A DNA stretch of 59,543 nt, filler included, from 4 parts of 4 records of this genome joined end to end with filler, not necessarily neighbours in it, one strand, 5' to 3'; shown: positions 30,234 to 48,587, numbered from the whole stretch's first letter. Notes: generated by a model from the letters alone, not told the origin. Numbers and translations are program-made.

Positions 30234-30254
30234 GTCTTTGAAAACTTTACAGAT

Positions 30255-30542: not shown

Positions 30543-30712
30543 TAAATCCTCCCTCCTTAATATAAGACTAATTATGGACTTTGATGTGTCATACACTGAT
30601 TTTGTGTTAAAATCAGAGATTGACTTATTGATCTGATCTCTCAGGAAAAAGAGTTTTTCATCAATTTCTTTTACTTTCTTTAATACCTTGCTACTCATCA
30701 TAGTCCCCATTT

Positions 30713-32035
30713 CTATTGATAAGAATCCCTCGCAATATATATGTCTGTCTCCATGGATCCCTTAATACCGTATCGATGTGTGACACCACTGACCAAATAC
30801 TTGCCAGAGTTTTTCTTATCAATAACGGTATTTCTCCCATCCCATCGGGGCACATTGATAGTGATGACATCACCAGCAACAACACCAAAGTTTCCAGGAA
30901 CTGTAATTCTACCACTAATATGATCTAGTGACAAGAAACGGGATAGGGTATAAGGTTTGGCATCTGCAGATGTTTCATAGGAACCACCACTAATATTTTG
31001 TGCAGTCCTAATGGTACTGCCCGTAGAACCACCAATGGGTCCACTATTATTAGTCGTGCTTGCCTCTCTTGTAATAGTATCCCCAAAGAGATGAGGTGCT
31101 ACACAGGAATAGAAAACTCTCGATACTCCACCAATTTGATCTTCAACTTGTTGAAACTCTGAGAAGGGATTCGTGCTTCCCAGATGACTCATTCTACTGT
31201 AGTTACCATCGATTGACCACCGTTTCGCTATGTTATTTTCCGATTTCAAATTCACGAAATCAACACCGTAGAAGATACCACCGTAGGCACCTTTCCGTAG
31301 GTTGTCTTGTACATTCAGACCACTATCAATAACAAAGTTTCTGATTGCTAGTTGATCATCAGGACCAGTGCTTTGAGAAACGTTCTTAGGTCTCAATGTG
31401 AACTCAAACTTTGATCTACCTTCACACATTTTGTCCATGGACTTGAAGTGGAAACCATCTAGTGCTTCATAGAATAGATAACCTGCTTGTCCACTTTTGC
31501 CACTACGGATTGCCTTTGCTGATAGTTGTGAAATAAAATCAAAGGGTCTGTAGTTTGGGCAGATAAAAGATCCCCTGTGTTCTGTACTCTCAATCTCAAC
31601 TTTCTTCTGTGTACCCAATCTTCTCTTCAGAATATCTCCAACGATTGAAGATATTTTAGTATTCTTATATGCAAATAATAATCTCTGATTGTCATTCAAG
31701 TAACTCTCTCTGGAGTTGAACACAATATTATACTTCTTGACTTTCTCACCATCAATTAAGTCACGTACTTCATTCAGATATGTTTGCCAAGTCATACGAC
31801 CACCGAATGAATCCATATCAAGATCTAAAATCTCTTGACCTACAAGTTGTGTATAGAGACCTACATTATCCTGAATCGATAAGATGACTCTAACACTGGG
31901 ACAATCAATACTCTGTAGAATAGTGATACCTTGCACATATGCTGTAATGTCAGGTAACGTAGTTCCATCTGCCTTTCTTAGTGTGATACCGTTGACTACG
32001 GCATCTCCAACGTTATAAACTCCAGTTCTTGCCAT
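30713..32035 (-). CDS. Baseplate hub protein (gp27/VgrG-like)
   Basis: GYLFYEALDGFHFKS, ITVPGN..V.AGD.I, SGKYLV..V.H; lies upstream of gp5. Confidence 0.75.
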   Translation of the reverse strand: MARTGVYNVGDAVVNGITLRKADGTTLPDITAYVQGITILQSIDCPSVRVILSIQDNVGLYTQLVGQEILDLDMDSFGGRMTWQTYLNEVRDLIDGEKVKKYNIVFNSRESYLNDNQRLLFAYKNTKISSIVGDILKRRLGTQKKVEIESTEHRGSFICPNYRPFDFISQLSAKAIRSGKSGQAGYLFYEALDGFHFKSMDKMCEGRSKFEFTLRPKNVSQSTGPDDQLAIRNFVIDSGLNVQDNLRKGAYGGIFYGVDFVNLKSENNIAKRWSIDGNYSRMSHLGSTNPFSEFQQVEDQIGGVSRVFYSCVAPHLFGDTITREASTTNNSGPIGGSTGSTIRTAQNISGGSYETSADAKPYTLSRFLSLDHISGRITVPGNFGVVAGDVITINVPRWDGRNTVIDKKNSGKYLVSGVTHRYGIKGSMETDIYIARDSYQ

Positions 32036-35000
32036 TACTTAATACCTCCACCAAAAATCTTACCAGCAATAGAACCAAGAGTACCAGCAATATTAGATGT
32101 AAGATTTTCACCTGAAGACGACTTCTCAAATCCTGGATTTGGAGCTCCTCCACCCTGCTGGGCACTTTTCTGAGATGCACTAATAATTGCTTGCTGAATC
32201 ATAGGTAGTATCTGCTGCATAGCCTGATCATTTACAGCAGGTGGTAGTTCTGCCATCTTACCTTTATCTACAAGGACACCAGCAATAACATCACTAGTAA
32301 CCTTAACTAATTTATCTGTCAACATAGTGGTTGCACCTTCCAAGTTCTGAATCTTGGCAGAGTTTTGTGCTACCTGTTGAGTCTTCATCAATGTAGAAAA
32401 TGCCTTTGCTGCATTAACGTTTAAGACTGTTGATCCACCAGGAACAAAAGCTTGCTTTGAGTCAGGTCCACCACTGGTGCCAGCAAGTTGACCAACAGCA
32501 AAGTCAAGAGCACCCATGCCAGCCTGCTTCAGGAAACTTGATGCACCTAAACCTTTACCACCGATATTCAATGCGTCTAGTGTACCACCAAACATCGATG
32601 TAAATCCAGGGCCAAAGATCATCTCACCACCTTGAGCAAGAATATTTCCCATTCCACCCATTCCACCCAAGATATCTCCACTCATCAGTCCACCAAGTGC
32701 ACCATCTAACAGACCACTTGCTGATGACATGAACCCACCAACAGATCCTCCGATCATATTACCAAGACCACCGAATCCCCCGATTCCACCAAGTGCACCA
32801 GATATGGCACCACCGATACCTCCACCACCCATCAGTCCACTGATACCACCAATAGCAGCAGATGCAATAGGTCCAATGCCAGGGATGAATGATGCAGCAA
32901 TAGGTGCTACTTTTGCGATAGTCTTACCAATACTACCGACTGCATTACCAATACTCTTAGCAATACCACCAAGGAACATGCGTTGAGGTTTGATTTGACC
33001 GAGAGCCTCTTTTATTTTTTCAGGAGTCATGCTACTGGATTGTCCAGGATAGTGAAACTTTCCTTGAGCATTTGGGAACGAAGCAAATTCTTGGGATAGA
33101 CCCTGCATAAAGGTGTTTGTGTCTATCTCACCTGCTAACCATTGAGCACCCTTACGGCTACCTTCGATGTTTGATTTTATAATAAGTTTATCTTGATTTG
33201 CTTCATTGTACAAATCTTTATCTGGATCAAGTCCAATTCTTCTTGCTCGACCAACCAAGTTTTGTGGGAGTTGTTGATACTTACCAACAGCTCCTGTTGC
33301 TTTCTTAGCAACTTCGGAGATGGTCATTTTGGTTGCACCAGGCAATGTTTTATTGGGGTTCATTGCCTCATAGTTGCCACCTGACTCCTTACCAGCAATT
33401 AGATCTAAGAGTGGACCCCATGTACCTGTACTTCCAGCAGGAGGTGTTGCTGTTTTTTCACCATTAGGACCAAAGGCAGGACCTGCGTATTCCTGGGGTG
33501 ATTTGGGTGGAGTTGCACCAGGTGGAGATGGTGTAGGAGTTGGTGCACTTCCACCAGGTAGGATACTCTTAAACCAATTCTTGATAGCATCAGTCATTGC
33601 ATCGGCAAAGTCCTTTCCTGCCTGAGTGTTGGATGTGGACTGACCCATTGCCTTATCTAAGAGACTAGAGTCTACACCGAAAATTTGTAGAATAGGACCC
33701 ATCAATGTCTTAGCAATCGGTCCAAGCATGTTACCGATTCCAAAAGGTATTTTGCCTAGCATAGCACCCAGACCAACTAGAATTCCAGCACCTGCCATCT
33801 TAAGTGGCATAGGAATGAGAGTTGCCATTCCCTTTGCCATCTTCTTACTGTTACCAATGATAGCAGCAAGAGGATCATTACCTGCGTCAGTGTATCTGTT
33901 TTTGATAGGAACAACTGCCTCGGTTCCATGTGCTTCGATTGCTCCACCACCAACTCTTGCACGATATCCTTGATTTCTACCAGTAATGATACGAGCAGCA
34001 CCAGACTGAGCATGGGGTAGTCTACCACCTGTTCTGAATGGTAAAATGCCACCAGTTTCAGCTGATCCCAGAATATCACCACCAGGGGTGCCACTTGTTC
34101 CACCAGATCTTGTTGTTGAACCAGAAGGTTTTGTTGCTGAAACAGATGGTGATTTTTCTCCATCTGCCACTGACATGCCGATGAGCGTAGTAATTCCTCC
34201 AGCAGCAGCTCCTAGAGCAAGACCCTTCAGTCCACGACCTTTCATTTTCATGACACCAGTCTTGGTTGCCATGACGAGTGCTTTACCTGCCTTAGCAGCA
34301 AGACCTAATGCTTTCGGGATTATTCTGAATACCTTAAAGATTCTCTTGACATCTTTAATAATTTTGAAAGGATTCCTTAGGTATCTGTTGGCTAAGAACA
34401 GAGAGAATATTCCTACAGCAAACTGTAAGAATCCTTTTAATCTGCCTAGTAGTGAACTATCACTACCAAACATGTTACTGAAACCTTCTAGTGCACTGAT
34501 GACACCAAACTCTACAAATTTGTAGATTGCTTTACCAACTTTGACTAGGACTCTTAAAAAATCCACAGTCATCTTTGCATTTTTAGGGTCAGACAACCAC
34601 TTCAATGCACCAAATAAAACTAGTGTCTTTAATAACTTAAGTAGTGATGCAAAGAATCCACCACCATCATCAGGTGATGTATCAGATGAACCATCAGCAA
34701 CTGATCCTGCACGTTTTGCTTCTAGACCACCCTCTTTACCACCTAATCTTGCTCGTGATGCTGCAATTCTTCTCTCCCTTGCTGTCTGTCTTTGTTGTTT
34801 AGCAGCATTAACTTTTCTCTTACGGTCTTCAGATGCTAGACCTTTAATAGAATCATTAATTAGTTTATTATTTTTGATTAATCCCTTAGTTGAATTATCA
34901 ATACTAAGTTTGATGCCCTGCAGAATCTTAGTTTGTTCATTCAACTGACCACCAATCCTATTCATTGCAAGAACTTGCAATCTAGGAGTACCATCTGGTT

Positions 35001-35094
35001 TACTCTGATATTTCTTGCCAGCAATCGTTGCTGTCCCTCCAGTGGAACGAACTCCACGAGGGTTTACAAATTTATAAAATGATGCAGCTGCCAT
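32035..35094 (-). CDS. Tape-measure/baseplate-hub-like protein with a lysozyme-like domain
   Basis: 1019 aa, Gly/Ala-rich helices; LLDLIAGKESGGNY..AVGKYQ..QD..LSQEFASFP lysozyme-like core. Confidence 0.75.
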   Translation of the reverse strand: MAAASFYKFVNPRGVRSTGGTATIAGKKYQSKPDGTPRLQVLAMNRIGGQLNEQTKILQGIKLSIDNSTKGLIKNNKLINDSIKGLASEDRKRKVNAAKQQRQTARERRIAASRARLGGKEGGLEAKRAGSVADGSSDTSPDDGGGFFASLLKLLKTLVLFGALKWLSDPKNAKMTVDFLRVLVKVGKAIYKFVEFGVISALEGFSNMFGSDSSLLGRLKGFLQFAVGIFSLFLANRYLRNPFKIIKDVKRIFKVFRIIPKALGLAAKAGKALVMATKTGVMKMKGRGLKGLALGAAAGGITTLIGMSVADGEKSPSVSATKPSGSTTRSGGTSGTPGGDILGSAETGGILPFRTGGRLPHAQSGAARIITGRNQGYRARVGGGAIEAHGTEAVVPIKNRYTDAGNDPLAAIIGNSKKMAKGMATLIPMPLKMAGAGILVGLGAMLGKIPFGIGNMLGPIAKTLMGPILQIFGVDSSLLDKAMGQSTSNTQAGKDFADAMTDAIKNWFKSILPGGSAPTPTPSPPGATPPKSPQEYAGPAFGPNGEKTATPPAGSTGTWGPLLDLIAGKESGGNYEAMNPNKTLPGATKMTISEVAKKATGAVGKYQQLPQNLVGRARRIGLDPDKDLYNEANQDKLIIKSNIEGSRKGAQWLAGEIDTNTFMQGLSQEFASFPNAQGKFHYPGQSSSMTPEKIKEALGQIKPQRMFLGGIAKSIGNAVGSIGKTIAKVAPIAASFIPGIGPIASAAIGGISGLMGGGGIGGAISGALGGIGGFGGLGNMIGGSVGGFMSSASGLLDGALGGLMSGDILGGMGGMGNILAQGGEMIFGPGFTSMFGGTLDALNIGGKGLGASSFLKQAGMGALDFAVGQLAGTSGGPDSKQAFVPGGSTVLNVNAAKAFSTLMKTQQVAQNSAKIQNLEGATTMLTDKLVKVTSDVIAGVLVDKGKMAELPPAVNDQAMQQILPMIQQAIISASQKSAQQGGGAPNPGFEKSSSGENLTSNIAGTLGSIAGKIFGGGIK

Positions 35095-35099
35095 TTATA

Positions 35100-36440
35100 T
35101 TATCGACCGAAAGTTGATAGTGGTGATGGTGGTTTAGAACTACCTCCTCCTCCACCTGGTGAGGACATTGGTGTGGGGATTGGCATAAACACTCTCTGAA
35201 TTGCACCAATCTCAACAGGAGCTTTAGTAATACCAGGATGCATGATACTCTCTCTATTTATCCCTGTTGATTGACCCATCACTCTTGCACCACGACTCTC
35301 AGCTATCTTGACAAGACCACCAAGGTTCTTGCGATCATAATCTTCAGGTTTATACTTCTTTTTCTGATCTTTTGCAGATTTCACTCTTGCAGCAATAATA
35401 TCCTCAGATGGAGTATCACCTGCAACACCACCAGTAGTAAATCGACCAAAGTTTACAATACCACCATAATTCATTCTCTGTCTAATCTGATCACGGATCT
35501 TCTCTGGACCCGATCCCATTTTGTCACCTTGCTTCAGTTTTGAAAGATCCCACTTACCACCCTGATCAGGCAGTTCTCCATGAGTAGGCACATTTTCTTT
35601 AGTGATGTCTGCTGCAGTCCACCCCCAAGTCTTTGCAAGATTTGCAATTCCCTGAGCAAGACTTGTTATCTGAATGTCTTTGATAGGATATTTGCCAAAA
35701 TTGCTTGGTGTTGCACCTAGCATTGCTGACACTGAGAAAGAAGCATTGCCACTATTGTTCCTGTACGTGTGATATGGTGGACTCTGACCAAATGATGCAT
35801 GTCCTGGGTGCTGATTAGCAACAACTGCACCATTACCTTTCACATAACGATGATAACCTGCCCAACCAAAATCTGCCTTGATAGATCTATCATCATCATA
35901 TGAACCTCCAGTCCAGTGCATGATAATTTTTCTATTCTTCTTACTAGTCTTATCCTCACCTACACCTGCAACTGGTGGTGTTGCAGTTTCTCCTTTTGCT
36001 TTCAAGAATGCCTGAACCATTGATTCATTAGCAGCAGTTCCATCTTTATTTGTGGTATTTCTTAAACGACCACCGACTCCACCAATACCACCTTCAAAGA
36101 ACTGTAGTCCACTACCAGTATTAACTGCATGGAAGTTCTCATTCTTTTCATTTTTAAAGAAGAACTTCTCACCCTCTTCAATACCATAATTCCTGCTTGA
36201 ATCAAGAGTAGGTGCACCAGTTGATCTTTTCACAGACTCTGCATCACCTAGACCTACAAGGTTTGTGAGTCCAGGTGCTACCTGCCTTGGGATGGTTTTC
36301 AACCAACCTTGTAGCAAACCACCCAAAAGAGTTTTTATTGGTGCTACAGTCGCACCAAAGAATTTTGAGAGATGCTCCTTGATTTGATTCTTTGCTGAGA
36401 CGACTGGTGCCACCATAGGTGTTTCACTTAAAGAAACAAC
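35100..36440 (-). CDS. Virion protein with N-acetylmuramoyl-L-alanine amidase domain, 5' truncated
   Basis: IIMHWTGG, YH, HTY..N, V.THGE, WDL Amidase_2-like motifs; frame open to the contig edge. Confidence 0.75.
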   Translation of the reverse strand, partial: VVSLSETPMVAPVVSAKNQIKEHLSKFFGATVAPIKTLLGGLLQGWLKTIPRQVAPGLTNLVGLGDAESVKRSTGAPTLDSSRNYGIEEGEKFFFKNEKNENFHAVNTGSGLQFFEGGIGGVGGRLRNTTNKDGTAANESMVQAFLKAKGETATPPVAGVGEDKTSKKNRKIIMHWTGGSYDDDRSIKADFGWAGYHRYVKGNGAVVANQHPGHASFGQSPPYHTYRNNSGNASFSVSAMLGATPSNFGKYPIKDIQITSLAQGIANLAKTWGWTAADITKENVPTHGELPDQGGKWDLSKLKQGDKMGSGPEKIRDQIRQRMNYGGIVNFGRFTTGGVAGDTPSEDIIAARVKSAKDQKKKYKPEDYDRKNLGGLVKIAESRGARVMGQSTGINRESIMHPGITKAPVEIGAIQRVFMPIPTPMSSPGGGGGSSKPPSPLSTFGR

Positions 36441-36540: not shown

Positions 36541-36821
36541 CAGAAAGACATTTAGTTCCAGCGATTTCTGAAAAAGTGAAAGATACTGAGTTCGATGTCT
36601 TATTTATTACAGGTGTTGGAGAAGTGTTTCCATACATTCGATCTCATAACGTCCTCAACAATCTTCAAAGTGCAGTTAAAGATCAACCGATGGTTATGTT
36701 TTTTCCTGGTAGTTACCAACACGAATTGGCGACTGGCGCCTCGTTGGATTTATTCAGCAGATTGCATGATGACAAATACTATAGAGCATACAACATTTTA
36801 ACTATGAAGGCAGCATCATGA
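36541..36821 (+). CDS. brxB: BREX protein BrxB (DUF1788), 5' truncated
   Basis: LFITGVGEVFPYIRSHNVLNNL..VMFFPGSY..L.LF..DDKYYRA; ATGA overlap with brxC. Confidence 0.9.
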
Positions 36822-39800
36822 GCACTACACTCCGTACGCTTTTTTCAAAACCGGTAGATCGTCCGATTGACGGAGTCATAAAGGCAGATGACGAAGAAAG
36901 TCTCCTGAATGAACTAGAAGAATATGTCGTTACAAATGAAATCGAAAAAAATATCAGTAGTTTTTTATCCAACTATAACAATTACACTAATAAAAACGGA
37001 ATATGGATTTCAGGATTTTTTGGATCTGGAAAATCACACCTTTTAAAAATGTTATCTTTAGTGTTGGAAGATAAACATGTAGAAGAAAAAAGTGCGGCAC
37101 AAATTTTTCTGAACAAGATTTCTCACGATGCATTTTTAAAGAGCGAATTAGAAAAAGCAGTCAAGGTCCCTTCCAAGAGCGTACTTTTTAATATCGACCA
37201 AAAGGCGACAATTATAAGCAAGGAAGAAGTTGATGCACTGCTTACAGTGTTTCAGTCAGTATTCGACCAAATTTGTGGATACTACTCAGAGGGGTACATA
37301 GCAAGTCTCGAAAGAGAACTTGATGAACGTAATCTTTTCGCTGCATTCAAGGATGAATTCCGAAAGCACTCCTATGACGAAATTTCTTGGGAGGAGGGGC
37401 GAGAGCAAGCGGCGTTTGAGTCAGACGCGATCTCTAAGACATTCGCAATAGTAACTGGGCAAAGTGAAGTTGCCGGTGAAAACATTTTAGAAAATTATTC
37501 AAGAAATTATGCTGTCTCAATAGAGGGGTTTGCCAAACAGGTTAAAAAATACATTGATAAACAAGAACCGGGTTTTCGTCTAAATTTCTTTGTGGATGAG
37601 GTTGGTCAATACATTGCTGATAACGTAAAATTAATGACAAACCTGCAAACGGTCGCAGAAAGTTTGAATACTATCTGTAAGGGGCAAGCATGGATAATTG
37701 TTACTGCTCAAGAGGCACTCGACAAAGTTGTTGGCGATATTACTGCCCAACAGGCAAATGACTTTTCAAAGATTATGGCAAGATTTGATATTCGAATGCC
37801 CCTCACAAGTAAGAATGTGGCAGAGGTAATCCAAAAGAGACTTTTGAGTAAATCGATGCCTGCAGAAACAGAACTCCAGGATGTCTACAAATCTGAGGCG
37901 AGTAATTTTGGAACACTTTTCAAGTTTTCAGATGGTTCAGTAGATTTAAGAAACTTTGTCGACGAAGATAACTTTATACAAAGTTATCCATTTGTACCCT
38001 ATCAGTACGATCTGTTTCGTGAGTCAATTAAAGGATTGTCTGAACACAATGCTTTTGAAGGTAAACACAGTTCTGTTGGTGAACGTTCTATGTTGGGTGT
38101 GTTTAGAGAAGTTGTGATTGAAATTGCCGACTTGAAACTTGGGCAATTAGCAACTTTCGATTTAATGTTCTCTGGGATCAGAACCGCTTTAAAAAGTTCT
38201 GTGCAAACCTCCATTCAAATAGCAGAAGGTAATCTAGGGAACGACTTTGCAGTTCGTATTTTAAAAGTCCTATTTCTTGTTAAATATTACAGACAATTTA
38301 AACCAACACTGCATAATATTTGCGTTTTGATGCTCGATCGTTTCGATCAAGATATTTCTCAATTAAGGAAGTCTGTTGAAGAGGCGCTTAATTTACTTGA
38401 GTTACAAACTTACATCCAACGAAATGGTGAAGTTTACGAATTTCTCACCGACGAGGAAAAAGACGTTGAGGACGAGATCAAAAATACTGAAGTAGATACT
38501 TCTGAGGTTTCGGATGAATTAAAGGGACTTGTTTTTCGTGACATAATTTCCACCCCCAAAATCCGTCATTCCTCAGGAGACGATTACAAATATGCCCAGA
38601 AAATTGATTATGAGTTAAAGGGACAGGACTCAGAACTTTCAATTAATATAATTACCCCTTTTCATGAGGATGCAGAAAATGAGTCCGCCCTCAAAATGAG
38701 TTCAATGGGCACAGATGAGTTATTAGTTATCCTTCCCACAAACTCCCGATTTATATCCGATTTAATGCTTTACAAACGTACTGAGAAGTATGTTCGGCAA
38801 AATCAACGCACTGGATTAGACGAGGTAAAATCCAGGATTTTAAATGAGAAGGGATCACAGAATTCAGAACGCTTCCGAAATTTAAAAACTCGTCTTCAGG
38901 CAATGATGTCTAATGCAACTTTCATCGTAAGAGGTGAGATCATTGAAATGAGAGAAGGGGATGCAAAGTCTCGAGTAGAGAGGGCATTCCAAATACTAAT
39001 TGAAAAGGTTTACAGTAACCTATCCATACTGAGAGGCGTTAAGTACGCCGAAACTGATATTGCGAAATATTATACCGATGCCAAGGAAGGAATGTTTGCT
39101 GATGGAACCGCACCTCTAACCGAGGCAGAACAGCAAATCTTTAACCATATTCAAGCACAAGCAAAATTAAGCATCAGGGTTTCGCTCAAGTCAGTTCAAG
39201 AGAAGTTTGAACGAAAAAATTATGGATGGTCATCTTACGCAATCCTTGCAAACATAGCGCGTCTATGTGGAAGTCATAAATTGGAAGTGACTGCTGACAG
39301 CAACCAACTTTTAGATGATGACTTGATACGGGCATTCAAAAGCAATCGCGACCACTCAAATATTATATTGCAAACTGTTTCAGTCATCCCTCAGTCACAG
39401 ATACGTTTTCTAAAAAAGTTCTTTGAAGATTTCTTTGACCATCCACCGTTATCCACCGACGCTCGTGGACTAACAGTCGAAATATCAAATGGATTTAGAG
39501 AACTTTCAATCAAACTTGACCAATACTTAGTACAGTCTTCACATATTCCGTTCTTGGCAAAATTGTCTGATGTGAAAGGTACTCTAGACATTGCTTCAGA
39601 CAAGGATTTCAACTGGTTTCTCAATGACCTTTCTAAAATGGAAGACGATTTATTAGACCAGAAAGAAAACATTTTAGATCCTATCATCAAATTCATGGAG
39701 GGTACGCAAAAAACAATTTATGAAAATGCGCGCCAATTCTTGGTTAATAACAGGGATAACTTCATATCTATTGAAACCAATAATGCTGAGGAAGTGCAAA

Positions 39801-40276
39801 GAATTCTGCGCGACGAAAATTGTTTCAAAGGAAACAAGGTTCAACAATTGAATAACCTCGTCTCAGACTTGGAAAACGAAATAATTACGGTACGAGAACA
39901 AAATTTAAAGTCATCGATTGAGAAGGTAGAAAGTCTCTATAATCAGGTTCAAACGATACCCGATTACCAATCAGCAAGTGAGCAAGTTCGAACAGAAATA
40001 AAGAGACGTTTTGATGAAATAAAAATTACTTTGTCAGACACTCAAGCGATCGATGTAATTTCCGTTACCCTAGGTAGATTTGAGAAAAACACGTTTCCGG
40101 CACTTCTTGGATTGCTCGGAGGTTCGGAGGTTGCAGAGGTAGTTTCATCCGAGTCGATACAATATCAAAAACCAAAATCAATTTTGGAAAATGAAGCAGA
40201 TTTAGACGAGCATATTAATGAGTATCGCCGCGCTATGTTGGACGAAATCATTAAGGGGAAGAGGATCACGATCTGA
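36818..40276 (+). CDS. brxC: BREX P-loop ATPase BrxC
   Basis: RPIDGVIKAD, WISGFFGSGKSH Walker A, FFVDEVGQ Walker B, YPFVPYQ. Confidence 0.95.
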   Translation: MSTTLRTLFSKPVDRPIDGVIKADDEESLLNELEEYVVTNEIEKNISSFLSNYNNYTNKNGIWISGFFGSGKSHLLKMLSLVLEDKHVEEKSAAQIFLNKISHDAFLKSELEKAVKVPSKSVLFNIDQKATIISKEEVDALLTVFQSVFDQICGYYSEGYIASLERELDERNLFAAFKDEFRKHSYDEISWEEGREQAAFESDAISKTFAIVTGQSEVAGENILENYSRNYAVSIEGFAKQVKKYIDKQEPGFRLNFFVDEVGQYIADNVKLMTNLQTVAESLNTICKGQAWIIVTAQEALDKVVGDITAQQANDFSKIMARFDIRMPLTSKNVAEVIQKRLLSKSMPAETELQDVYKSEASNFGTLFKFSDGSVDLRNFVDEDNFIQSYPFVPYQYDLFRESIKGLSEHNAFEGKHSSVGERSMLGVFREVVIEIADLKLGQLATFDLMFSGIRTALKSSVQTSIQIAEGNLGNDFAVRILKVLFLVKYYRQFKPTLHNICVLMLDRFDQDISQLRKSVEEALNLLELQTYIQRNGEVYEFLTDEEKDVEDEIKNTEVDTSEVSDELKGLVFRDIISTPKIRHSSGDDYKYAQKIDYELKGQDSELSINIITPFHEDAENESALKMSSMGTDELLVILPTNSRFISDLMLYKRTEKYVRQNQRTGLDEVKSRILNEKGSQNSERFRNLKTRLQAMMSNATFIVRGEIIEMREGDAKSRVERAFQILIEKVYSNLSILRGVKYAETDIAKYYTDAKEGMFADGTAPLTEAEQQIFNHIQAQAKLSIRVSLKSVQEKFERKNYGWSSYAILANIARLCGSHKLEVTADSNQLLDDDLIRAFKSNRDHSNIILQTVSVIPQSQIRFLKKFFEDFFDHPPLSTDARGLTVEISNGFRELSIKLDQYLVQSSHIPFLAKLSDVKGTLDIASDKDFNWFLNDLSKMEDDLLDQKENILDPIIKFMEGTQKTIYENARQFLVNNRDNFISIETNNAEEVQRILRDENCFKGNKVQQLNNLVSDLENEIITVREQNLKSSIEKVESLYNQVQTIPDYQSASEQVRTEIKRRFDEIKITLSDTQAIDVISVTLGRFEKNTFPALLGLLGGSEVAEVVSSESIQYQKPKSILENEADLDEHINEYRRAMLDEIIKGKRITI

Positions 40277-43200
40277 TGGACACGACTGTACTGAAGCGAT
40301 TTGCGCAAGAGGCGCGGATTGTCCTTAAGAACAAGGTGAATTCAAAAATTGATGTTGTGCTCGATGAGGAAAGTGCCGCACGTCGCGAAAACGCAAAAGC
40401 AGTCAGAGACCTAGAAAATAAAATTCGCACAACAAACAAAGACAAGGTCGTCGAACAAGTTGCGTATACTTGGTTCAATCGGTTCACTGCTTTGCAGTAC
40501 ATGGATGTTAATGGATATAACCGTGTTCGAGTGATTGCCCCTGCTGATGGTCAGACACGTCCAGAGATCATGTCAGACGCAAGTGCAGGTGTGTTTGATG
40601 ATAATCTCGTATCAGAGAATACCAAAAATATTGTTACATCTCTTCTGGATGGTCGTTCCGCCAGTATTGATCCTGATAACGAGGCATATCGATATTTGAT
40701 TGTGTCTGCCTGTAACTATTGGCATTCCGCGATGCCATTTCTGTTTGAAAAGATCGCAGACTACACCGAACTTCTGATGCCGGATGATCTTCTATCCGGT
40801 AATTCAATCTTGGTGAAACTCCGTGACGCAATGACACCAGAGAATTGCGAAGATGTAGAAGTCATAGGTTGGTTGTATCAGTTCTATATTTCCGAAAAGA
40901 AAGATGAAGTCTTTGCTGGGTTGAAGAAAAACCAAAAAGTCACACCAGAGAATATTCCTGCTGCAACACAACTATTCACACCAAATTGGATTGTGAAGTA
41001 TCTGGTTGAAAACTCTCTAGGACGTCTTTGGGTGTTGAACCGTCCAAACTCGTCACTGATCCATCAGATGGAGTATTACATTGCACCAGGGGAACCAGAA
41101 ACAGACTTTCTAAAGATAGCATCTCCGGAGGAGATTAAGATCTGTGATCCTGCATGTGGATCCGGACACATGCTGACGTACTCGTTTGACCTTCTTTACT
41201 CTATTTATGAAGAGGAGGGATATGATGCGGCAAGCATTCCCACTCTAATCCTACAAAACAATCTCTATGGTATTGAATTAGATCAACGTGCAGGAGAACT
41301 ATCTGCATTTGCACTGACAATGAAGGCGCGTGGGAAGCATAGGCGTTTTTTGAGCAATCCTGTGCAACCCAATATTTGTGTTTTGGAAAACATCAAATTC
41401 CAATCTCAGGAACTCGATGAATATATGACTGCGGTGGGAAAGGATCTATTTACACTTCCACTGCGAACCACTCTCACACAATTTGAAGAGGCGGATAACT
41501 TTGGATCTCTTATTCAACCCGCACTTCAAGATGTAGAAGGCACTCTGGAGATTCTGCAGTCCAAGGATCTCTCGGGCAACCTCTTTCTCAAAGCAACCCA
41601 AGACCTGGTTTTAAAAGTACTCAAACAGGCAGATTATCTCAAACATAAATATCACGTTGTCGTTGCCAACCCACCCTACATGGGCAGTAAGGGAATGAAT
41701 GGGAAACTAAGCGATTATGCAAAAAAGGAATACCCAGACAGTAAATCCGATCTCTTTGCGATGTTTATGGAACGCACTCTGCGATTGACGGTTAAACGTG
41801 GTGTGATGGCAATGATCAACATGCAGTCGTGGATGTTCTTATCATCTTATGAAAAACTGCGGGGCAAACTTCTCTCAAATGCCACGTTGCTCAACATGGC
41901 GCATATTGGACCAAGAGGTTTTGACTCGATCGGCGGCGAGGTCGTTTCGACAACGGCATTCACATTCCAGAACAATCATAACCCAATCCATAAAGGGGAC
42001 TTCCTACGTTTATTAGACGGAATGTCAGAAGCAGAAAAATCTTACATGACAAAAGAAGCAATCACCAACCCAGACTGCGGTTGGTTACACAGAGTTTCGA
42101 TAGGTGATTTAGATAAAATACCGGGAAGTCCAATTGCATATTGGGTATCCAGTGAATTTCGGTCAGCATTCAAAAACCTAAATTTACTTAAAGATGTAGC
42201 GCGCCCCTGCGCCGGTCTTGCTACTGGCGATAATAATAAATTCCAGAGATATTGGTTCGAAGTCCAGTTCATCAATATTGCATTTGATTGTAAATCAAAT
42301 GCCGAAAGTTCAAACCGATTTGAGGTTTGGTATCCTTGCAATAGTGGGGGGGACTACAGGAAATGGTTCGGAAATAATGAAGTAGTGGTAAATTGGAAAT
42401 ATGATGGGCAAGAAATAAGGAATTTCAGAGACCATAACGGCAACCTAAGGTCTAGACCACAAAATACCCATTATTTCTTTAAACCGGGAGTAACATGGAC
42501 CAAACTTAGTTCAAATAATTTTGCCGCTAGATTACGCGAAACTGGTTTTGTTTTTGATGATACAGGGCGCTCTGCTTTTCCAAATGCGGCGGAACATAAA
42601 GAAGAAATTCTTGCTAATATGTGCTCAAGTGCGGGGAGCATTGCACTGAAAACCTTAAACCCATCATTGAGTTTCACCAGTGGTGATGTCGGGAATTTAC
42701 CAATCATACCGATAGACTCGGTTTCTAGGAAACGTGTTAAAGAAATTATAACATTATCTCAATCAGACTGGGATTCTTACGAAACTTCCTGGAAGTTTAC
42801 AAAACTTCCGCTTATGCCTTCTGATTTCTGCTCTACAACACTTCAAAATACCTATAATTCCCTTCGCACTCATTGGCAGGAAATGACAGATGAAATGCTG
42901 CGCCTGGAAGAAGAAAACAATCGGATTTTCATCGATGCATATGGACTGCAAGACGAACTCACACCTGATGTTCCAATCCATGAAATAACACTGACATGTA
43001 ATCCTGCATATCGGTATGTACAAAAGGTTTCCAAAGAGGTTCAGGAAGAGCGACTGCGTGAAGACACCATGAAGGAATTCATCTCTTATGCAGTTGGTTG
43101 CATGTTTGGTAGGTATGCACTGGAAGAACCTGGACTAGTCCTAGCAAACCAAGGAGAGACGCTGGAGGACTATTTGCGGAAAGTCCCCAATCCATCTTTC

Positions 43201-43782
43201 TCTGCAGACGATGACAACGTTATACCTGTCTTGGACGGTGATTGGTTCGATGATGATGTCACAGAACGTTTCCGTAAGTTCTTACGCATCACTTTTGGAG
43301 AAGAAAACTTCACAGAAAACTTACGATTTGTAGAAATTGCAATCGGAAAAGACATTCGTAAATACTTTTTAAAAGATTTCTACAAAGATCATGTTCAGAG
43401 ATATAAGAAACGTCCCATCTACTGGCAGTTTTCAAGTCCTAGAGGGTCATTCAACGCGTTAATCTACATGCATCGTTACAATCGAGACACGGTGTCTGTG
43501 ATGCTCGACCGGTATTTGCGTGAATTCAAAGTAAAACTAACCTCGCAGAAATCTTCCTTGGAACGCATTGAAATCAGTGCAGATGCAACTCAGGGGGAAA
43601 AGTCCAAGGCAATGAATGAGATTCAAAAGATCAATTCAACTTTGGAAGAACTTGACACATGGGAAAGAGATGTTGTGTTTCCACTGGCAACTCAAAGAAT
43701 TGAAATTGATCTCGATGATGGGGTGAAGACAAACTATCCTAAATTTGGCAAAGCACTTTCAAAAGTCATTGGGTTGAGTTGA
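40276..43782 (+). CDS. pglX: BREX-1 adenine methyltransferase PglX
   Basis: VAYTWFNR, PAATQLFTP, DPACGSGH, NPPY, KRPIYW, DLDDGVKTNY. Confidence 0.95.
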   Translation: MDTTVLKRFAQEARIVLKNKVNSKIDVVLDEESAARRENAKAVRDLENKIRTTNKDKVVEQVAYTWFNRFTALQYMDVNGYNRVRVIAPADGQTRPEIMSDASAGVFDDNLVSENTKNIVTSLLDGRSASIDPDNEAYRYLIVSACNYWHSAMPFLFEKIADYTELLMPDDLLSGNSILVKLRDAMTPENCEDVEVIGWLYQFYISEKKDEVFAGLKKNQKVTPENIPAATQLFTPNWIVKYLVENSLGRLWVLNRPNSSLIHQMEYYIAPGEPETDFLKIASPEEIKICDPACGSGHMLTYSFDLLYSIYEEEGYDAASIPTLILQNNLYGIELDQRAGELSAFALTMKARGKHRRFLSNPVQPNICVLENIKFQSQELDEYMTAVGKDLFTLPLRTTLTQFEEADNFGSLIQPALQDVEGTLEILQSKDLSGNLFLKATQDLVLKVLKQADYLKHKYHVVVANPPYMGSKGMNGKLSDYAKKEYPDSKSDLFAMFMERTLRLTVKRGVMAMINMQSWMFLSSYEKLRGKLLSNATLLNMAHIGPRGFDSIGGEVVSTTAFTFQNNHNPIHKGDFLRLLDGMSEAEKSYMTKEAITNPDCGWLHRVSIGDLDKIPGSPIAYWVSSEFRSAFKNLNLLKDVARPCAGLATGDNNKFQRYWFEVQFINIAFDCKSNAESSNRFEVWYPCNSGGDYRKWFGNNEVVVNWKYDGQEIRNFRDHNGNLRSRPQNTHYFFKPGVTWTKLSSNNFAARLRETGFVFDDTGRSAFPNAAEHKEEILANMCSSAGSIALKTLNPSLSFTSGDVGNLPIIPIDSVSRKRVKEIITLSQSDWDSYETSWKFTKLPLMPSDFCSTTLQNTYNSLRTHWQEMTDEMLRLEEENNRIFIDAYGLQDELTPDVPIHEITLTCNPAYRYVQKVSKEVQEERLREDTMKEFISYAVGCMFGRYALEEPGLVLANQGETLEDYLRKVPNPSFSADDDNVIPVLDGDWFDDDVTERFRKFLRITFGEENFTENLRFVEIAIGKDIRKYFLKDFYKDHVQRYKKRPIYWQFSSPRGSFNALIYMHRYNRDTVSVMLDRYLREFKVKLTSQKSSLERIEISADATQGEKSKAMNEIQKINSTLEELDTWERDVVFPLATQRIEIDLDDGVKTNYPKFGKALSKVIGLS

Positions 43783-46286
43783 TGGATGAGAGGATAGTCC
43801 AAGGACTCAAATCACATTTCGAAAAACACCGGATTGTTTTTTGGTACGATTCCAAAAAAGAAATGCGCGAACAGTTCGACAATATTGAAATGGATGACGT
43901 TGAAAAAATTGAAATCGAAAACAACGAGTTTTCAATAAAACATCGAATTCTAAGAGAGCATCCAAAACAAAAATTTTTAATTTATAAATTTGGATCTGAA
44001 CCTGAAAAACTAACTGATAATTGGTTGCTTGATGTGCAGTTGTCCCAAGGGCAATTCCGCACCGATCAAATTCAAATGTGGTTAAATGAGTTGGGTTTGG
44101 AACTAGGTTTCGCAGGCACTATCGAGCATCATCAATACTTCTTTCGATCTAAAAAACGCATCGAAGATCTGAAATCGACCTTAACAAATAAAGATGACAC
44201 CATAGCACTTAAGGGCAAAATGCTTTTGGTCGCAACTGGATCTAATCAAGACATAGAAGGCATCGTTGCATCTCTGTTTGAGGAATTCGCAAAATCTGAA
44301 GATAGGATTTTTAAACTACTCAAGAAATGTAATCTAGAGGAATTCTTATGGGAACAGTTAGAACGGCGATATGAGTATGCAGTTGATAACCCAACCATCG
44401 CAGACTTTGTATTAGAACTTTTCAAATCTTGCTACCAAAGGTCACAAAACCAAGAGTCTATGTTGAATGCGGAAGCACTTATTTTGCTTCAACGGTGGAA
44501 AAACGATAGAAATAACAAGGAAATATTTGAACAACTATCAGGGGAATTCCAAGAAGCGCTTTTGATTTGTGAGAATACTCGAGAAAAAGATTTCCGCGCT
44601 TTAATCGATATAGACTATTTTGAAGAAATAGATCGGCACATTATTCGGTCGTTAATACAAGAATTATCTGCGCAAACTCTGTCTCGGGATGAGGTTAAAG
44701 TTTTCATAAGAACTCGCCGGAGAACTCATTGGTTTCCAAATTATGAACATGTTTATGAATCCATTCTACACGCGTCTGAATTTCTTCATGAAATGTCAGC
44801 AACGTCACTAGGTATGGACGGATTTGAAGATGCCCTTAATATCTACACAGAAACTTGGTTTAAAATTGATCAATTTTATCGTAAATTTATCTTTCACCTG
44901 AAAAAATCATCTCAAGTCACGTTGCTTGGCGATATTGGTGATTTAATTGAAAACAAATACGGAAATGACTATTTGCTGCGTTTAAATGATGCTTGGCAAA
45001 AGCAAGTTGACCAAGTTTCTGAATGGGAAAGTGTGAATGTTCCTTCGCAGAGAGATTTTTACAAAAATTATGTCCAACAACTAAGATCTAAGGGCAAGAA
45101 GTGCGTTGTGATTGTGTCAGACGCCTTGCGGTATGAGATTGGTGAAGAGTTACGCCAGAGGATCCGCGAAAGGGATAAGTTCGACTGTAAAATCGAACCA
45201 ATACTGTCATCGTTGCCCAGTTATACCCAATTAGGAATGGCATCCCTTTTACCAGAGGGAGATCTGGCAATCCTAGACCCCTCGAAACCCACAGTTATGC
45301 ATGCTGGCGCCTCTACCGCAGGAATTGAGAACCGTAGAAAAGTTTTGGGCGCAAACATCGGTGAGGATAGGTCTTGCGCCTATCATACAGATGACTTTTT
45401 AGACTTTAAAAATCACGAAACGAAAGACATCATTCGTGATCACGATGTGATTTACATTTATCATAATCGTATTGACGCAACCGGAGACTCCACAAAAACA
45501 GAAGAAAAGGTTTTTGAAGCGGTAGAGAATACGATTGAAGAATTGGTTTCGTTAGTTCGGAAATTAACTTCAGCAAATGCAGGGAATATCTTCATCACAT
45601 CGGACCATGGTTTTATTTACCAAAACCGCGATTTGGAATCCAGCGAATACTTAGGGTCTAAACCTGAGGGTAAGGAAGTCCTTTACCATGACAGGCGGTT
45701 TGTGCTTGGCAAGGAACTGTTAGAAACAAGTAGTTTTAAAAAGTTCACATCTGGTCAACTCAGGATATCTGGTGACTTTGATATATTATTTCCTAAGTCG
45801 ATAAATCGTTTAAGACGGTCAGGTTCCGGTGCAAAGTTTGTACATGGTGGGGTGTCTCTACAGGAGGTAGTGATACCCGTCTTAAGCATCAAGAAGGGAC
45901 GTGAAAGTGATGCGTCTCAAGTAGATATCACTATTCTTACAGGAACTTCAAAAACGATTTCTACCAGTCAAATTTCTATCAAACTATATCAAGAAGCGCC
46001 AGTGACTGCAAAAGTTCATGCGCGAACGGTACGTGTAGGTTTATATGGGGGTGACGGAGAGTTGTTATCCGATCAACAAGAAATTACCTTTGATATCGAG
46101 TCTGAAGACCCCCGCGATCGTGAACAAAAAATGCAGATATTACTAAGTAAATCCGCGGATAATTATAATCATCAGGAGGTAATCTTGAGATTAGATGAAC
46201 GTCATCCAGGGACTTCTCATTACAAAGAATATCGTTTCGTTAAGTATATGATCAAACGTACATTCACTAACGATTTTGATTTTTAA
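43782..46286 (+). CDS. pglZ: BREX phosphatase/nuclease PglZ
   Basis: RIVFWYD, VSDALRYE, LPSYTQLGMASLLP, TSDHGF, FVHGG.SLQE; TGATG overlap with pglX. Confidence 0.95.
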   Translation: MDERIVQGLKSHFEKHRIVFWYDSKKEMREQFDNIEMDDVEKIEIENNEFSIKHRILREHPKQKFLIYKFGSEPEKLTDNWLLDVQLSQGQFRTDQIQMWLNELGLELGFAGTIEHHQYFFRSKKRIEDLKSTLTNKDDTIALKGKMLLVATGSNQDIEGIVASLFEEFAKSEDRIFKLLKKCNLEEFLWEQLERRYEYAVDNPTIADFVLELFKSCYQRSQNQESMLNAEALILLQRWKNDRNNKEIFEQLSGEFQEALLICENTREKDFRALIDIDYFEEIDRHIIRSLIQELSAQTLSRDEVKVFIRTRRRTHWFPNYEHVYESILHASEFLHEMSATSLGMDGFEDALNIYTETWFKIDQFYRKFIFHLKKSSQVTLLGDIGDLIENKYGNDYLLRLNDAWQKQVDQVSEWESVNVPSQRDFYKNYVQQLRSKGKKCVVIVSDALRYEIGEELRQRIRERDKFDCKIEPILSSLPSYTQLGMASLLPEGDLAILDPSKPTVMHAGASTAGIENRRKVLGANIGEDRSCAYHTDDFLDFKNHETKDIIRDHDVIYIYHNRIDATGDSTKTEEKVFEAVENTIEELVSLVRKLTSANAGNIFITSDHGFIYQNRDLESSEYLGSKPEGKEVLYHDRRFVLGKELLETSSFKKFTSGQLRISGDFDILFPKSINRLRRSGSGAKFVHGGVSLQEVVIPVLSIKKGRESDASQVDITILTGTSKTISTSQISIKLYQEAPVTAKVHARTVRVGLYGGDGELLSDQQEITFDIESEDPRDREQKMQILLSKSADNYNHQEVILRLDERHPGTSHYKEYRFVKYMIKRTFTNDFDF

Positions 46287-46298
46287 GAGGGTGTGATT

Positions 46299-48359
46299 AT
46301 GACTGCACTAGATGATAAAATTAACCAACATTTTCCTGGACTTGTTGTCCGAAAGGACTTGGTTAAAACAGTCAAAGGAAACGCGATAGTTCCCTCTTAT
46401 GTTTTAGAATACTTGTTGGGGCAATATTGCGCAACTAATGACGAGACTTCAATTGAGAGCGGCATTGAAACAGTAAAAGATATTTTGGCAAAACACTATG
46501 TTCACCGAAATGAGGCAAACCTTACAAGGTCAAATATAAGAGAACGTGGTCGCTACAAGGTTATCGATAAAGTTAGTGTCTCACTTAATGACAGAAACGA
46601 CACCTACGAAGCAAGTTTTGCAAATCTTGGACTCAAAAAGGTTCTAGTTGATACTGATACAATCAAAAACCATCCCAAACTTTTGGTAACGGGTGTTTGG
46701 TGTATATCGGATATCGAATACGAGCATACTGAGGACTCTCGTGTCGAACCTTGGATATTGTCGTCAATAAAACCTATTCAACTTTCGCAATTTGATTTCG
46801 AGGGATATTTACAAGCACGAAAAGAATTCACTACCGAAGAGTGGATAGACCTTTTGATGCAAAGTATGGGTTTTAATCCAGAATTGTTCGGTAAACGTAA
46901 CAAGATGATGCAGTTACTTCGTTTGGTTCCATTTGTTGAAAGGAATTTTAATCTCATTGAATTAGGACCAAAGGGAACGGGCAAGTCTCATATTTTTTCA
47001 GAATTTAGTCCTCATGGAATGTTAATTTCTGGCGGTGAAGTAACCGTTCCAAAGTTGTTTGTTAATAACAGTTCGGGGAAGTTAGGATTAGTAGGTTATT
47101 GGGATGTCGTCGCCTTCGACGAGTTTGCTGGAAAACAAAAAAAAGTCGATAAAGCACTAGTTGATATTCTAAAAAACTACCTTGCTAACAAAACCTTTTC
47201 GAGGGGCGTAGAAACATTAGGTGCAGAAGCGTCTATGGCATTTATTGGTAACACAAAGCACAATGTGCCTTATATGCTGAAATATTCAGATCTTTTTGAG
47301 GAGTTGCCTGATAAGTACTATGATCCAGCATTTATTGACCGTCTGCATGCTTTTCTGCCCGGTTGGGAAGTAGATATCATCCGCGGGGAAATGTTCTCTG
47401 AGGGTTACGGATTTGTTGTTGATTATATTGCAGAGATATTAAGACATCTTAGAAACCAAGATTTCTCCGACAGGTACCAAGAGCATTTTACCATCTCTTC
47501 TGATATCGCCACGCGCGACCGAGATGCAGTACACAAAACATTTTCTGGTTTGATGAAGGTTTTATTTCCAAATGGAGAGCAAACGACTGAAGAAACCGAG
47601 GAAATATTGCATTTTGCAATGGAGAGTAGAAAGCGTGTCAAAGATCAATTGATGCGTCTTGATAGCACCTTTGAAAAGGTAGACTTTTCGTATGTGACAC
47701 CTTCAGGAAGCAAGAAGTCAGTTAAGACTCTGGAAGAAATAGAATATCCTAATCATTATTACAAAAGAGCAGCATCTGATGATCTGGACGAGCAAGACAC
47801 TTCCTTGGAGTCAGACGAGGAAAATTCTGGAAGAGACAAAACAGAGTTGCCTCAGGAAAATAGAAGTAAAACCCCAACCACTGGACATATTACTGTTTCA
47901 GAGAACCAGCGCGGAATAACTTTTGATCAATTATTTTCTAATTATTTGAATGGCGCTAAAAAAATCACTCTGACAGATCCATACATACGTGTTTTTCATC
48001 AAATGAGAAATCTGATGGAATTTGTTGAAACACTGGTAAAAGTTAAGGAACAAGAAGATGATATTGATCTACATCTAGTGACCCAACCAGATGATATGCG
48101 TGGCGAACAACAAGAAAATTATTTGATGCAGGTACAACAAAGTGCTGATGCTCACGGTATAAATTTTACTTGGGAATTTGATAATGAGGGCACTACTCAC
48201 GCGAGACATATCCTGACTGATACTGGATGGAAAATATCGTTGGATAGAGGACTGGATATTTTTCAACGATATGAAATGAATGATGCATTTAATCTGAATA
48301 ATAGATTGCAAGAAACTAGAGCATGCAAGGCATTTGAAATCACTTACTTGAACATTTAA
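46299..48359 (+). CDS. brxL: BREX BrxL AAA+ protein with a C-terminal PLD/MIT_C-like domain
   Basis: VVRKDL, YVLEYLLGQY, ELGPKGTGKS, VAFDEF; C-terminus TDPYIR..HQ..HARHILTD.GW.I.LDRGLD instead of a Lon protease domain. Confidence 0.9.
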   Translation: MTALDDKINQHFPGLVVRKDLVKTVKGNAIVPSYVLEYLLGQYCATNDETSIESGIETVKDILAKHYVHRNEANLTRSNIRERGRYKVIDKVSVSLNDRNDTYEASFANLGLKKVLVDTDTIKNHPKLLVTGVWCISDIEYEHTEDSRVEPWILSSIKPIQLSQFDFEGYLQARKEFTTEEWIDLLMQSMGFNPELFGKRNKMMQLLRLVPFVERNFNLIELGPKGTGKSHIFSEFSPHGMLISGGEVTVPKLFVNNSSGKLGLVGYWDVVAFDEFAGKQKKVDKALVDILKNYLANKTFSRGVETLGAEASMAFIGNTKHNVPYMLKYSDLFEELPDKYYDPAFIDRLHAFLPGWEVDIIRGEMFSEGYGFVVDYIAEILRHLRNQDFSDRYQEHFTISSDIATRDRDAVHKTFSGLMKVLFPNGEQTTEETEEILHFAMESRKRVKDQLMRLDSTFEKVDFSYVTPSGSKKSVKTLEEIEYPNHYYKRAASDDLDEQDTSLESDEENSGRDKTELPQENRSKTPTTGHITVSENQRGITFDQLFSNYLNGAKKITLTDPYIRVFHQMRNLMEFVETLVKVKEQEDDIDLHLVTQPDDMRGEQQENYLMQVQQSADAHGINFTWEFDNEGTTHARHILTDTGWKISLDRGLDIFQRYEMNDAFNLNNRLQETRACKAFEITYLNI

Positions 48360-48454
48360 GGTATATTCAAATCTACACTTAGCAAGATCCTGATTGTTTT
48401 TAAAATGCTGCTTAGAAGTTCTCGAGAAGTTTATCGATTAGGCAAAGGTTGCGA

Positions 48455-48587
48455 CTAATTAACTTCAGTTTTATGCCTATAAACAGATGCGATCCCAATC
48501 CCTAGTTCTGCTGCAATCTGTTTCGGTTTCAAACCTTCCTGCAGCAGTTTCTGAATGTCTCCAGATTTTCTCTTTGCAGTCGGCACA
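48455..48587 (-). CDS. Serine resolvase/invertase C-terminal HTH, 5' truncated
   Basis: Manual translation VPTAKRKSGDIQKLLQEGLKPKQIAAELGIGIASVYRHKTEVN*; absent from the ORF track. Confidence 0.8.

Follow-up and report, generated by a model that had tools for sequence, protein, structure and literature searches.

The nuclease R.CviJI and the methyltransferase M.CviJI, both directed at RG^CY (R, purine; Y, pyrimidine), are encoded by chlorovirus IL-3A, a virus of a eukaryotic alga. The available text of a 2013 article gives RGCY as the specificity of CviJI and calls enzymes that cut so frequently extremely rare in nature (PMC3681635). Loss of recognition sites in prokaryotic viruses was surveyed by Rusinov et al. 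2018, whose available text puts complete or near-complete site elimination at about a tenth of viral genomes (PMC6286503). In single-molecule real-time (SMRT) metaepigenomics of Pacific seawater, RGCY carrying N4-methylcytosine (m4C) was the most frequent modified motif in viral metagenome-assembled genomes (V-MAGs; nine of them); as far as the available text of that study goes, the motif was common to 'Myoviridae-like' genomes averaging 2.2 methyltransferase genes, and the motifs of viruses seldom recurred in prokaryotic MAGs (PMC8919816). Among bacteriophage exclusion (BREX) systems, the available text of Rakesh and Krishnan 2026 reports 1030 instances of a BrxL whose C terminus resembles phospholipase D (PLD/HKD-like) with Arg in place of Lys (H-x-R; PMC12839542). 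Here we describe a BREX operon that fills a 12,047-bp contig, contig 3, at positions 36541-48587 of the window (the whole 59,543-nucleotide stretch of DNA analysed). RGCY has been removed from this operon completely and specifically, the removal was driven by selection, and the DNA concerned is of cellular-type composition.

The window consists of four contigs (1-19897, 19998-36440, 36541-48587 and 48688-59543) joined by N/TTAATTAATTAA spacers. RGCY comprises AGCT, AGCC, GGCT and GGCC and is its own reverse complement, so that one count covers both strands. Counting bore out the central statement of the initial annotation: each of the four words occurs zero times in contig 3 (GC 39.5%). The number expected is 116.0 from base composition, close to the roughly 120 that the annotation had anticipated, 38.1 under a second-order Markov model, and 60.8 +/- 6.3 after shuffling of synonymous codons inside each of the contig's four genes (minimum 45 in 300 shuffles); this last null is conservative, because it retains a codon usage that is already distorted. 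Across these expectations the probability of finding no site lies between 4e-51 and 3e-17. Ranked by depletion among all 256 tetramers, the RGCY words take the first four places, and related words remain common (RGCR 159, YGCY 102, YGCR 165, GCGC 29, CCGG 17, GATC 57), again much as annotated. RGCY is therefore under-represented after correction for composition and codon usage alike, the hallmark of restriction-site avoidance. That the absence extends to intergenic DNA, a further claim of the annotation, is true but trivial, since contig 3 is nearly all coding and holds only about 100 nt between genes. By observed/expected ratio (O/E, from base composition), contigs 1 and 4 are normal, with 139 sites (O/E 1.15) and 181 sites (O/E 1.05); both had been recognized as rich in RGCY. 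The about six-fold depletion of contig 2, with its 25 sites, had been overlooked.

The sequence is real and no artefact. Contig 3 or part of it was found in 19 marine or seawater runs from eight studies, with X1 and X2 holding 0.82-0.88 of the sampled words. Contigs from X1, X2 and X6 (one run from each of three studies, dated 2017, 2024 and 2025) differ from it at 0-8 positions in each listed piece, save for a divergent allele of pglX in X6; one of the three may be the source sample. A further run, X11, adds nothing, as only 5 of 30 bins were covered and the pieces were short and mostly poor matches. The four long reading frames of contig 3 are intact and their Pfam matches full-length.

The manner of avoidance indicates what was selected. 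Alanine is never encoded by GCC or GCT after a codon ending in a purine (0 of 70) and frequently so after one ending in a pyrimidine (52 of 132; Fisher P 3e-12). GGC is missing before codons that start with a pyrimidine (0/73) and present elsewhere (27/116; Fisher P 6e-7), and AGC follows the same neighbour-codon split (0/22 versus 16/43; Fisher P 5e-4). Likewise, CT or CC never comes next after NRG codons, which end in AG or GG (0/361), in contrast to NRA codons ending in AA or GA (61/662; P 2e-12). Synonymous choice thus depends on DNA context across codon boundaries. The loss is not absorbed by any single neighbouring word, RGTY and RACY standing at O/E 1.17 and 1.13. Collectively, these results demonstrate natural selection on the DNA word itself, exercised mostly by choice among synonymous codons and here and there by exchange of an amino acid. 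Being degenerate, RGCY counts as a word of three bases and offers about four times as many sites as a plain four-base word; clearing every one of them from 12 kb of coding DNA implies sustained selection, which in turn points to a nuclease specific for RGCY at work in marine microbial communities.

We compared contig 3 with 98 homologous BREX loci totalling 1.54 Mb (80 from genome_contigs, 8 from metagenomes, 6 from viral contigs and 4 from sampled genomes). Their RGCY O/E has a median of 1.07 and is at least 0.75 in 97 of the 98, with one locus at 0.75 itself; only one, L081, falls below 0.5. The longest RGCY-free run among them is 1,195 nt. Thirteen other BREX loci with GC of 0.34-0.45 lie at O/E 0.84-1.38, and the six on viral contigs at 0.89-1.10. 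Eighty loci whose BrxL homologs align over residues 3-686 of 688 reach a minimum of 0.80. The purge is not a property of BREX, which is a passenger and not the cause. The annotation had rightly held that BREX itself does not account for the missing sites.

A cellular baseline was drawn from 100 of 401 evenly drawn alphaproteobacterial genomes, one stretch of at most 20 kb each (1.75 Mb). The RGCY O/E of these stretches is 1.00 at the median and nowhere below 0.47. Two samples at 0.47-0.49 were considered as RGCY purges and rejected, as they avoid single palindromes (AGCT or GGCC) instead. In one sample, L148 (G109:C1:1-20000; GC 47%; on a 37-kb contig), the counts are 1/51 for GGCC and 0/51 for both CCGG and GCGC, and AGCC stands at 0.19. 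Near-total purges of four-base palindromes do occur, then, in DNA, chromosomal or perhaps prophage, that is filed under cellular genomes.

Contig 3 itself is cellular in composition. Its O/E is 0.97 for CpG, 0.94 for CCGG, 1.49 for CGCG and 1.60 for GCGC; low-GC cellular BREX loci have CpG O/E of roughly 0.5-1.1. Seven marine phage stretches range from 0.29 to 0.79 for CpG and from 0 to 0.69 for CCGG, which four of the seven lack altogether, and contig 2 falls within both ranges. Tetranucleotide usage of contig 3 correlates at only 0.28-0.52 with contig 2 and two cyanomyoviruses, and at 0.43-0.52 with the cyanomyoviruses by themselves, compared with 0.76-0.95 among those three. The profile of a T4-like marine myovirus (CCGG absent, CpG-poor, matching tetranucleotides, phage genes) is displayed in full by contig 2 and not by contig 3, on which no phage gene was found. 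The only named close relative of its BrxC is P0004 (MDB3929304.1) from a 'Paracoccaceae bacterium', on an 18.5-kb MAG contig. The bearer of contig 3 is an uncultured marine bacterium, and contigs 1, 2 and 4 come from organisms unrelated to it.

The closest DNA relative, the metagenomic contig L081 (metagenome_contigs), differs in the very feature of interest. Its BrxC is 90% identical and its DNA 85.4% identical over 2,774 nt, and it contains 13 RGCY sites in 3,790 nt (O/E 0.38), 7 of them in the part aligned to contig 3. At these seven positions contig 3 has A>C, G>A (twice), C>G, C>T (twice) and C>A. Seven replacements in five directions argue against base-calling error at a modified motif, which would run one way. 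Three are synonymous and four change an amino acid, including one from Trp-Pro (TGG CCC) to Trp-Ser; Trp-Pro, encoded by TGG CCN, is the only dipeptide that forces an RGCY site. Private sites number 0 in contig 3 and 7 in L081 (one-sided P 0.008).

Related proteins bear on the age of the purge. BrxC of contig 3 has one relative at 99% identity (P0001), three at 83% (P0002-4) and one at 75% (P0005), after which identity drops to about 60%. A maximum-likelihood tree built from the N-terminal parts of 25 BrxC proteins unites contig 3, P0001, L081, P0005 and P0002-4 in a clade (support 100/100) in which L081 is sister to contig 3 plus P0001 (100/99), on a branch about twice as long as that of contig 3. 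Six of the seven clade members have Trp-Ser at residues 804-805; L081 has Trp-Pro, as do 17 of the 18 rows that fall outside. On the simplest reading of this pattern, the forced GGCC would have been lost once, in the ancestor of the clade, and regained in L081. Asn predominates at residue 379, and the Ser of L081, written AGC TTT and so containing AGCT, is derived. These protein alignments suggest that the RGCY-free state is probably ancestral to the seven-member clade and that L081 was released from the constraint. A conserved Trp-Pro was also sought in homologs of PglX, PglZ and BrxL, where none is well conserved (best 13/89). Beyond these relatives, megablast of contig 3 against the plasmid and phage collections gave no match, and viral_contigs held no BrxC relative. 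The best matches were 62% for BrxL in viral_contigs, 48.5% for BrxC in plasmids (tblastn), about 38% over the full length for PglX in phages (44% over a partial match), 70% for BrxL in genome_contigs and 52% for BrxC in the 401 alphaproteobacterial genomes.

Marine phages share the avoidance in a lineage-bound manner. Among T4-like phages, RGCY O/E is 0.07 in each of the Synechococcus phages S-RIM2 and S-SZBM1 (L089 and L090, 50 kb each, both with 0 CCGG), 0.38 in the SAR11 phage HTVC008M (25 kb) and 0.15 in the uncultured contig 2. The podoviruses Syn5 (Synechococcus, 1.30), P-SSP7 (Prochlorococcus, 1.45) and HTVC010P (SAR11, 1.04) and the roseophage SIO1 (1.28) are undepleted (L102-L106 being Syn5, P-SSP7, HTVC008M, HTVC010P and SIO1). 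In this small sample of eight sequences, depletion tracks phage lineage and not host. S-RIM2 and S-SZBM1 keep 36 and 43 sites per 50 kb, clustered in tRNA genes and conserved baseplate or structural blocks, and their accessory or early regions are free of RGCY for 14,367 and 15,706 nt. Locally complete purges are therefore normal, and the zero of contig 3 needs no near-lethal selection; weak per-site selection would be expected to suffice in very large populations. The 'near-absolute selection' proposed in the annotation is accordingly not required, given these phage runs of 14.4 and 15.7 kb and the absence of CCGG and GCGC (0/51 each) from L148. Other words have been purged from other marine phages (SIO1: CCWGG 1/38, CCGG 0/71; HTVC010P: CCGG 0/15, GCGC O/E 0.06). 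A methyltransferase gene beside a hypothetical gene in S-RIM2 was considered as a phage RGCY restriction-modification pair and rejected, the enzyme being a Dam-type adenine methyltransferase.

The features of contig 3 are listed in Table 1. Gene content and order by Pfam are those of type 1 BREX, with brxB partial; brxA is off the contig and lies upstream in L081. PglX of type 1 BREX is an N6-adenine methyltransferase directed at a non-palindromic 6-bp motif, and the protein on contig 3 belongs to the corresponding domain family (Eco57I/N6_Mtase). BrxL has its PLD-like MIT_C domain at residues 541-686, with the H-x-R that marks the BrxL-HKD variant. Judged by its predicted domains, contig 3 is an ordinary type 1 BREX operon, brxB-brxC-pglX-pglZ-brxL, of that variant. 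Its genes overlap or abut, and about 95 nt separate brxL from a convergent gene fragment encoding a helix-turn-helix (HTH). That gene is possibly a serine recombinase or resolvase; the label 'resolvase' given to it in the annotation is plausible, but what is present is a 43-residue HTH fragment whose Pfam matches lie below the curated cut-offs. At the right end of the contig (48199-48587) word depth in three seawater runs is about 60, compared with about 9 over the BREX genes, and several alternative left flanks join this sequence from about 48473. The contig broke at a widespread, probably mobile element that occurs in multiple contexts and whose first gene ends in the HTH. A 37-nt stretch of this repeat, searched for in viral_contigs, gave 0 matches.

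Table 1. Features of contig 3 and the depleted phage contig, in window coordinates
Feature	Coordinates	Strand	Evidence
RGCY-free stretch, whole of contig 3	36541..48587	.	Word counts and expectations; matched by contigs from 3 runs
brxB, 3' part, cut by contig end	36541..36821	+	Pfam BrxB PF08747, E 1.6e-30, profile positions 46-124 of 124; open frame
brxC, 1152 aa, BREX P-loop ATPase	36818..40276	+	Pfam BREX_BrxC_4th, _helical, _wHTH; relatives at 99, 83, 75 and 60% identity
Codons TGG TCA, Trp-Ser, BrxC residues 804-805	39227..39232	+	L081 and most 53-60% homologs have Trp-Pro
pglX, 1168 aa, predicted N6-adenine methyltransferase of BREX	40276..43782	+	Pfam Eco57I, MmeI_Mtase, N6_Mtase
pglZ, 835 aa	43779..46286	+	Pfam PglZ, E 4e-56
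brxL, C-terminal PLD/HKD-like domain replacing Lon protease	46293..48359	+	Pfam BrxL_N, BrxL_ATPase, MIT_C; H-x-R-x4-D in translation
C-terminal HTH fragment, last 43 codons of convergent gene	48455..48587	-	HTH_23 and HTH_7, below curated cut-offs
Contig 2, uncultured marine T4-like myovirus fragment, different replicon	19998..36440	.	RGCY 25, O/E 0.15

Several observations concern neighbouring sequence. Over 40497-41441, the 5' third of pglX, the allele of run X6 has a depth of 22-37 compared with 2-5 and differs at about 6% of positions (20 differences in one 311-nt piece); the greater abundance of this allele means that a related BREX with a diverged PglX is more abundant in that sample. 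Contig 2 contains no CCGG (0/26) and no CGCG, has GCGC at O/E 0.04, and encodes on its minus strand (27673-30144) a gp5 hub about 28% identical to those of cyanomyoviruses. Of its 25 RGCY sites, 14 fall in 32143-35301, within a 1019-aa open reading frame (ORF) and an amidase-like ORF; GC too is higher in this block, which may have been acquired later or be under stronger constraint. Contig 1, at 31% GC, encodes housekeeping and transport functions, and contig 4 carries Planctomycete-type genes (PSCyt1 with FGE-sulfatase, 3-keto-disaccharide hydrolase) at 50% GC.

We favour, with a probability of about 0.6, an explanation in which an RGCY nuclease drove the purge of a cellular replicon or gene pool and BREX was carried along as a passenger. 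The agent would most likely be an endonuclease of CviJI-like RGCY specificity circulating in marine plankton. Selection would clear every RGCY site through context-dependent synonymous codons and some amino-acid replacement; the purge would be old in the BrxC clade, reaching to relatives of 75% identity, maintained in the lineage of contig 3 and relaxed in its sister lineage L081. The same pressure could deplete marine T4-like myoviruses, and other marine myoviruses would answer it by modifying RGCY as m4C.

A number of points weigh against this explanation. Pfam searches of contig 3 over ORFs of at least 100 aa revealed no RGCY-specific nuclease and no cytosine methyltransferase, and nothing like a type II nuclease or cytosine methylase, although no search with the CviJI sequence was made. 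The sole methyltransferase on the contig is the adenine-type PglX, and the locus encodes no CviJI-type restriction-modification system. To our knowledge, the chloroviral R.CviJI is the only natural RGCY nuclease, and we know of no cognate RGCY enzyme in prokaryotes. A resident restriction system normally shields its own DNA by methylation, and a cell is not known to be able to purge the conserved RGCY sites of its rRNA; a resident nuclease would still need a methylase for those rRNA sites, which weakens the need for a total purge. The undepleted podoviruses of Synechococcus, Prochlorococcus and SAR11 (O/E 1.04-1.45) speak against an RGCY enzyme being commonly encoded by these hosts. The lineage-bound pattern among phages lends indirect support to the phage-encoded nuclease that the annotation named as one candidate and makes a virus-borne nuclease thinkable, although the phages' own residual sites fit it awkwardly. 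A purge of the RGCY class was seen in 0 of the 100 alphaproteobacterial samples, so that such genomes are at least rare, and the taxon label of the bearer, which derives from a single MAG bin annotation, is weak evidence. The extension of the purge to the whole clade draws on protein data, one forced dipeptide across relatives of 75-83% identity, and would hold to that degree. That a whole replicon or gene pool was purged, and not the island alone, is the version we favour, as a preference and not a result.

In a doubtful but serious alternative, only the mobile defence island would be RGCY-free, because of repeated unmethylated entry into new hosts or of survival when a virus-encoded RGCY nuclease shreds the chromosome; the island would benefit by staying expressed, or by being released intact at lysis and spreading. 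A nuclease tied to T4-like phages would fit the tracking of phage lineage, and in the available text of PMC8919816 genomes of marine myovirus-like phages are rich in methyltransferases and modify RGCY. At its end contig 3 has the multi-context element and its recombinase-like HTH; the purge seems to travel with the BREX clade and was lost in L081, as expected when an island changes background; and no alphaproteobacterial sample of the 100 showed a genome-wide purge. However, all the DNA seen lies within the island and offers no contrast outside it, the 36 and 43 residual sites per 50 kb are awkward if the T4-like phages carry the nuclease, and CCGG is normal in contig 3, unlike in DNA that often enters restricting cells (depleted in all seven phage stretches). 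BREX proteins are moreover present before infection, so the gain from an intact gene during infection would be doubtful. A sharper form of this idea, which we regard as unlikely, is a nuclease-proof island: an RGCY endonuclease of marine T4-like or other viruses would shred host and rival DNA while the viruses protect themselves by purging or m4C-modifying RGCY, and the respelled BREX island alone would survive, to be expressed during infection or to leave the lysed cell as an intact transferable fragment of 12 kb or more. Less likely still, contig 3 could belong to a BREX-carrying virus or provirus whose DNA was purged as that of other marine phages was. Cultured cyanomyoviruses do have stretches of accessory DNA free of RGCY for 14-16 kb, BREX genes occur on six predicted viral contigs and in some 'phage' records, and the GC of 39.5% is close to that of contig 2 and the cyanomyoviruses. 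Such an origin is opposed by the lack of phage genes, the low tetranucleotide correlation, CpG, CCGG, CGCG and GCGC values unlike those of all seven phage stretches, the sequence searches (no BrxC and BrxL at most 62% in viral_contigs, no megablast match in phages) and the undepleted state of the six viral-contig BREX loci.

Explanations that dispense with an outside nuclease fare worse. Mutational decay, in which long-term cytosine methylation at RGCY is followed by deamination without selection, would account for the mild excess of RGTY (1.17) and RACY (1.13) and for the four of seven replacements relative to L081 that are deamination-type transitions. The other three (C to G, C to A and A to C) are not of this type, the joint excess of RGTY and RACY comes to about 54 for about 116 missing sites, and an equilibrium of exactly 0 in 116 needs an extreme rate. 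Private sites, 0 as against 7, show continuing removal or exclusion. Among the 40 population variants listed, none creates an RGCY site, which differs little from the about 1.5 expected. m4C does not deaminate to thymine. Decay is very improbable on this evidence, and deamination alone, one of the candidates in the annotation, is unlikely given these replacements, which include amino-acid changes; the marine RGCY modification in print is m4C, in the available text of PMC8919816. It is scarcely credible that the operon avoids a target of its own BrxL-HKD, PglZ or PglX: the system does contain a predicted HKD endonuclease domain, but the 80 loci with BrxL homologs and normal RGCY (minimum O/E 0.80) contradict the idea, PglX is an adenine methyltransferase by Pfam, and GGCC has no adenine. 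Practically no weight attaches to artefact or chance, whether through faults of assembly or base calling at a modified motif or through codon bias by itself. An exact zero invites such suspicion, but the frames are intact with full-length Pfam matches, contigs from three studies agree, the replacements relative to L081 run in five directions, and permutation at constant codon usage leaves 61 sites, with 45 as the minimum.

Clearance of a whole replicon or gene pool under pressure from a nuclease remains our preferred account. The annotation had seen in the locus an undescribed conflict system, for which we find no evidence; contig 3 is instead an ordinary type 1 BREX operon bearing the probable footprint of an outside nuclease. 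Three lines converge on RGCY in the ocean: its modification in myovirus-like genomes, already in print, its depletion in T4-like phages, and its purge from cellular-type defence DNA. Identification of the enzyme would account for a compositional rule seen in abundant phages of the ocean and could provide a new frequent cutter. If the purge were confined to the island, defence islands would be adapting their own spelling to survive nucleases; if the island were indeed nuclease-proof, site-free islands would constitute a new countermeasure, and RGCY would be the prokaryotic counterpart of the chlorovirus CviJI strategy. Our literature search turned up no account of cyanophages, or of a BREX locus, depleted of RGCY, most subscription journals lying outside the coverage of the search.

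Site avoidance is a known kind of phenomenon; what is new here is the degenerate, three-base-equivalent word, the bearer, which is a bacterial defence operon and not a phage, and the completeness. With the BrxL-HKD type 1 BREX of Rakesh and Krishnan 2026, contig 3 shares gene order and domains; site avoidance, which the operon on contig 3 shows, is absent from the BrxL-HKD description in the available text of that article (PMC12839542). R.CviJI and M.CviJI recognize the identical word, as the annotation had correctly noted of CviJI (PMC3681635, available text), and are virus-encoded, belonging to a chlorovirus of a eukaryotic alga, whereas the word is missing here from a bacterial operon. As in the avoidance described in the available text of Rusinov et al. 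2018 (PMC6286503), the word that has been lost is short, self-complementary and of type II character, and from contig 3 it is gone completely; that survey concerned viruses with known hosts and enzymes, and the bearer here is a cellular-type defence operon avoiding a degenerate word. Word and habitat are shared by the marine T4-like myoviruses, which avoid the same RGCY in the same ocean and have purged it completely over local runs of 14-16 kb. S-RIM2 and S-SZBM1 have in addition removed CCGG (0 in 50 kb) and are CpG-poor, whereas contig 3 has cleared RGCY only.

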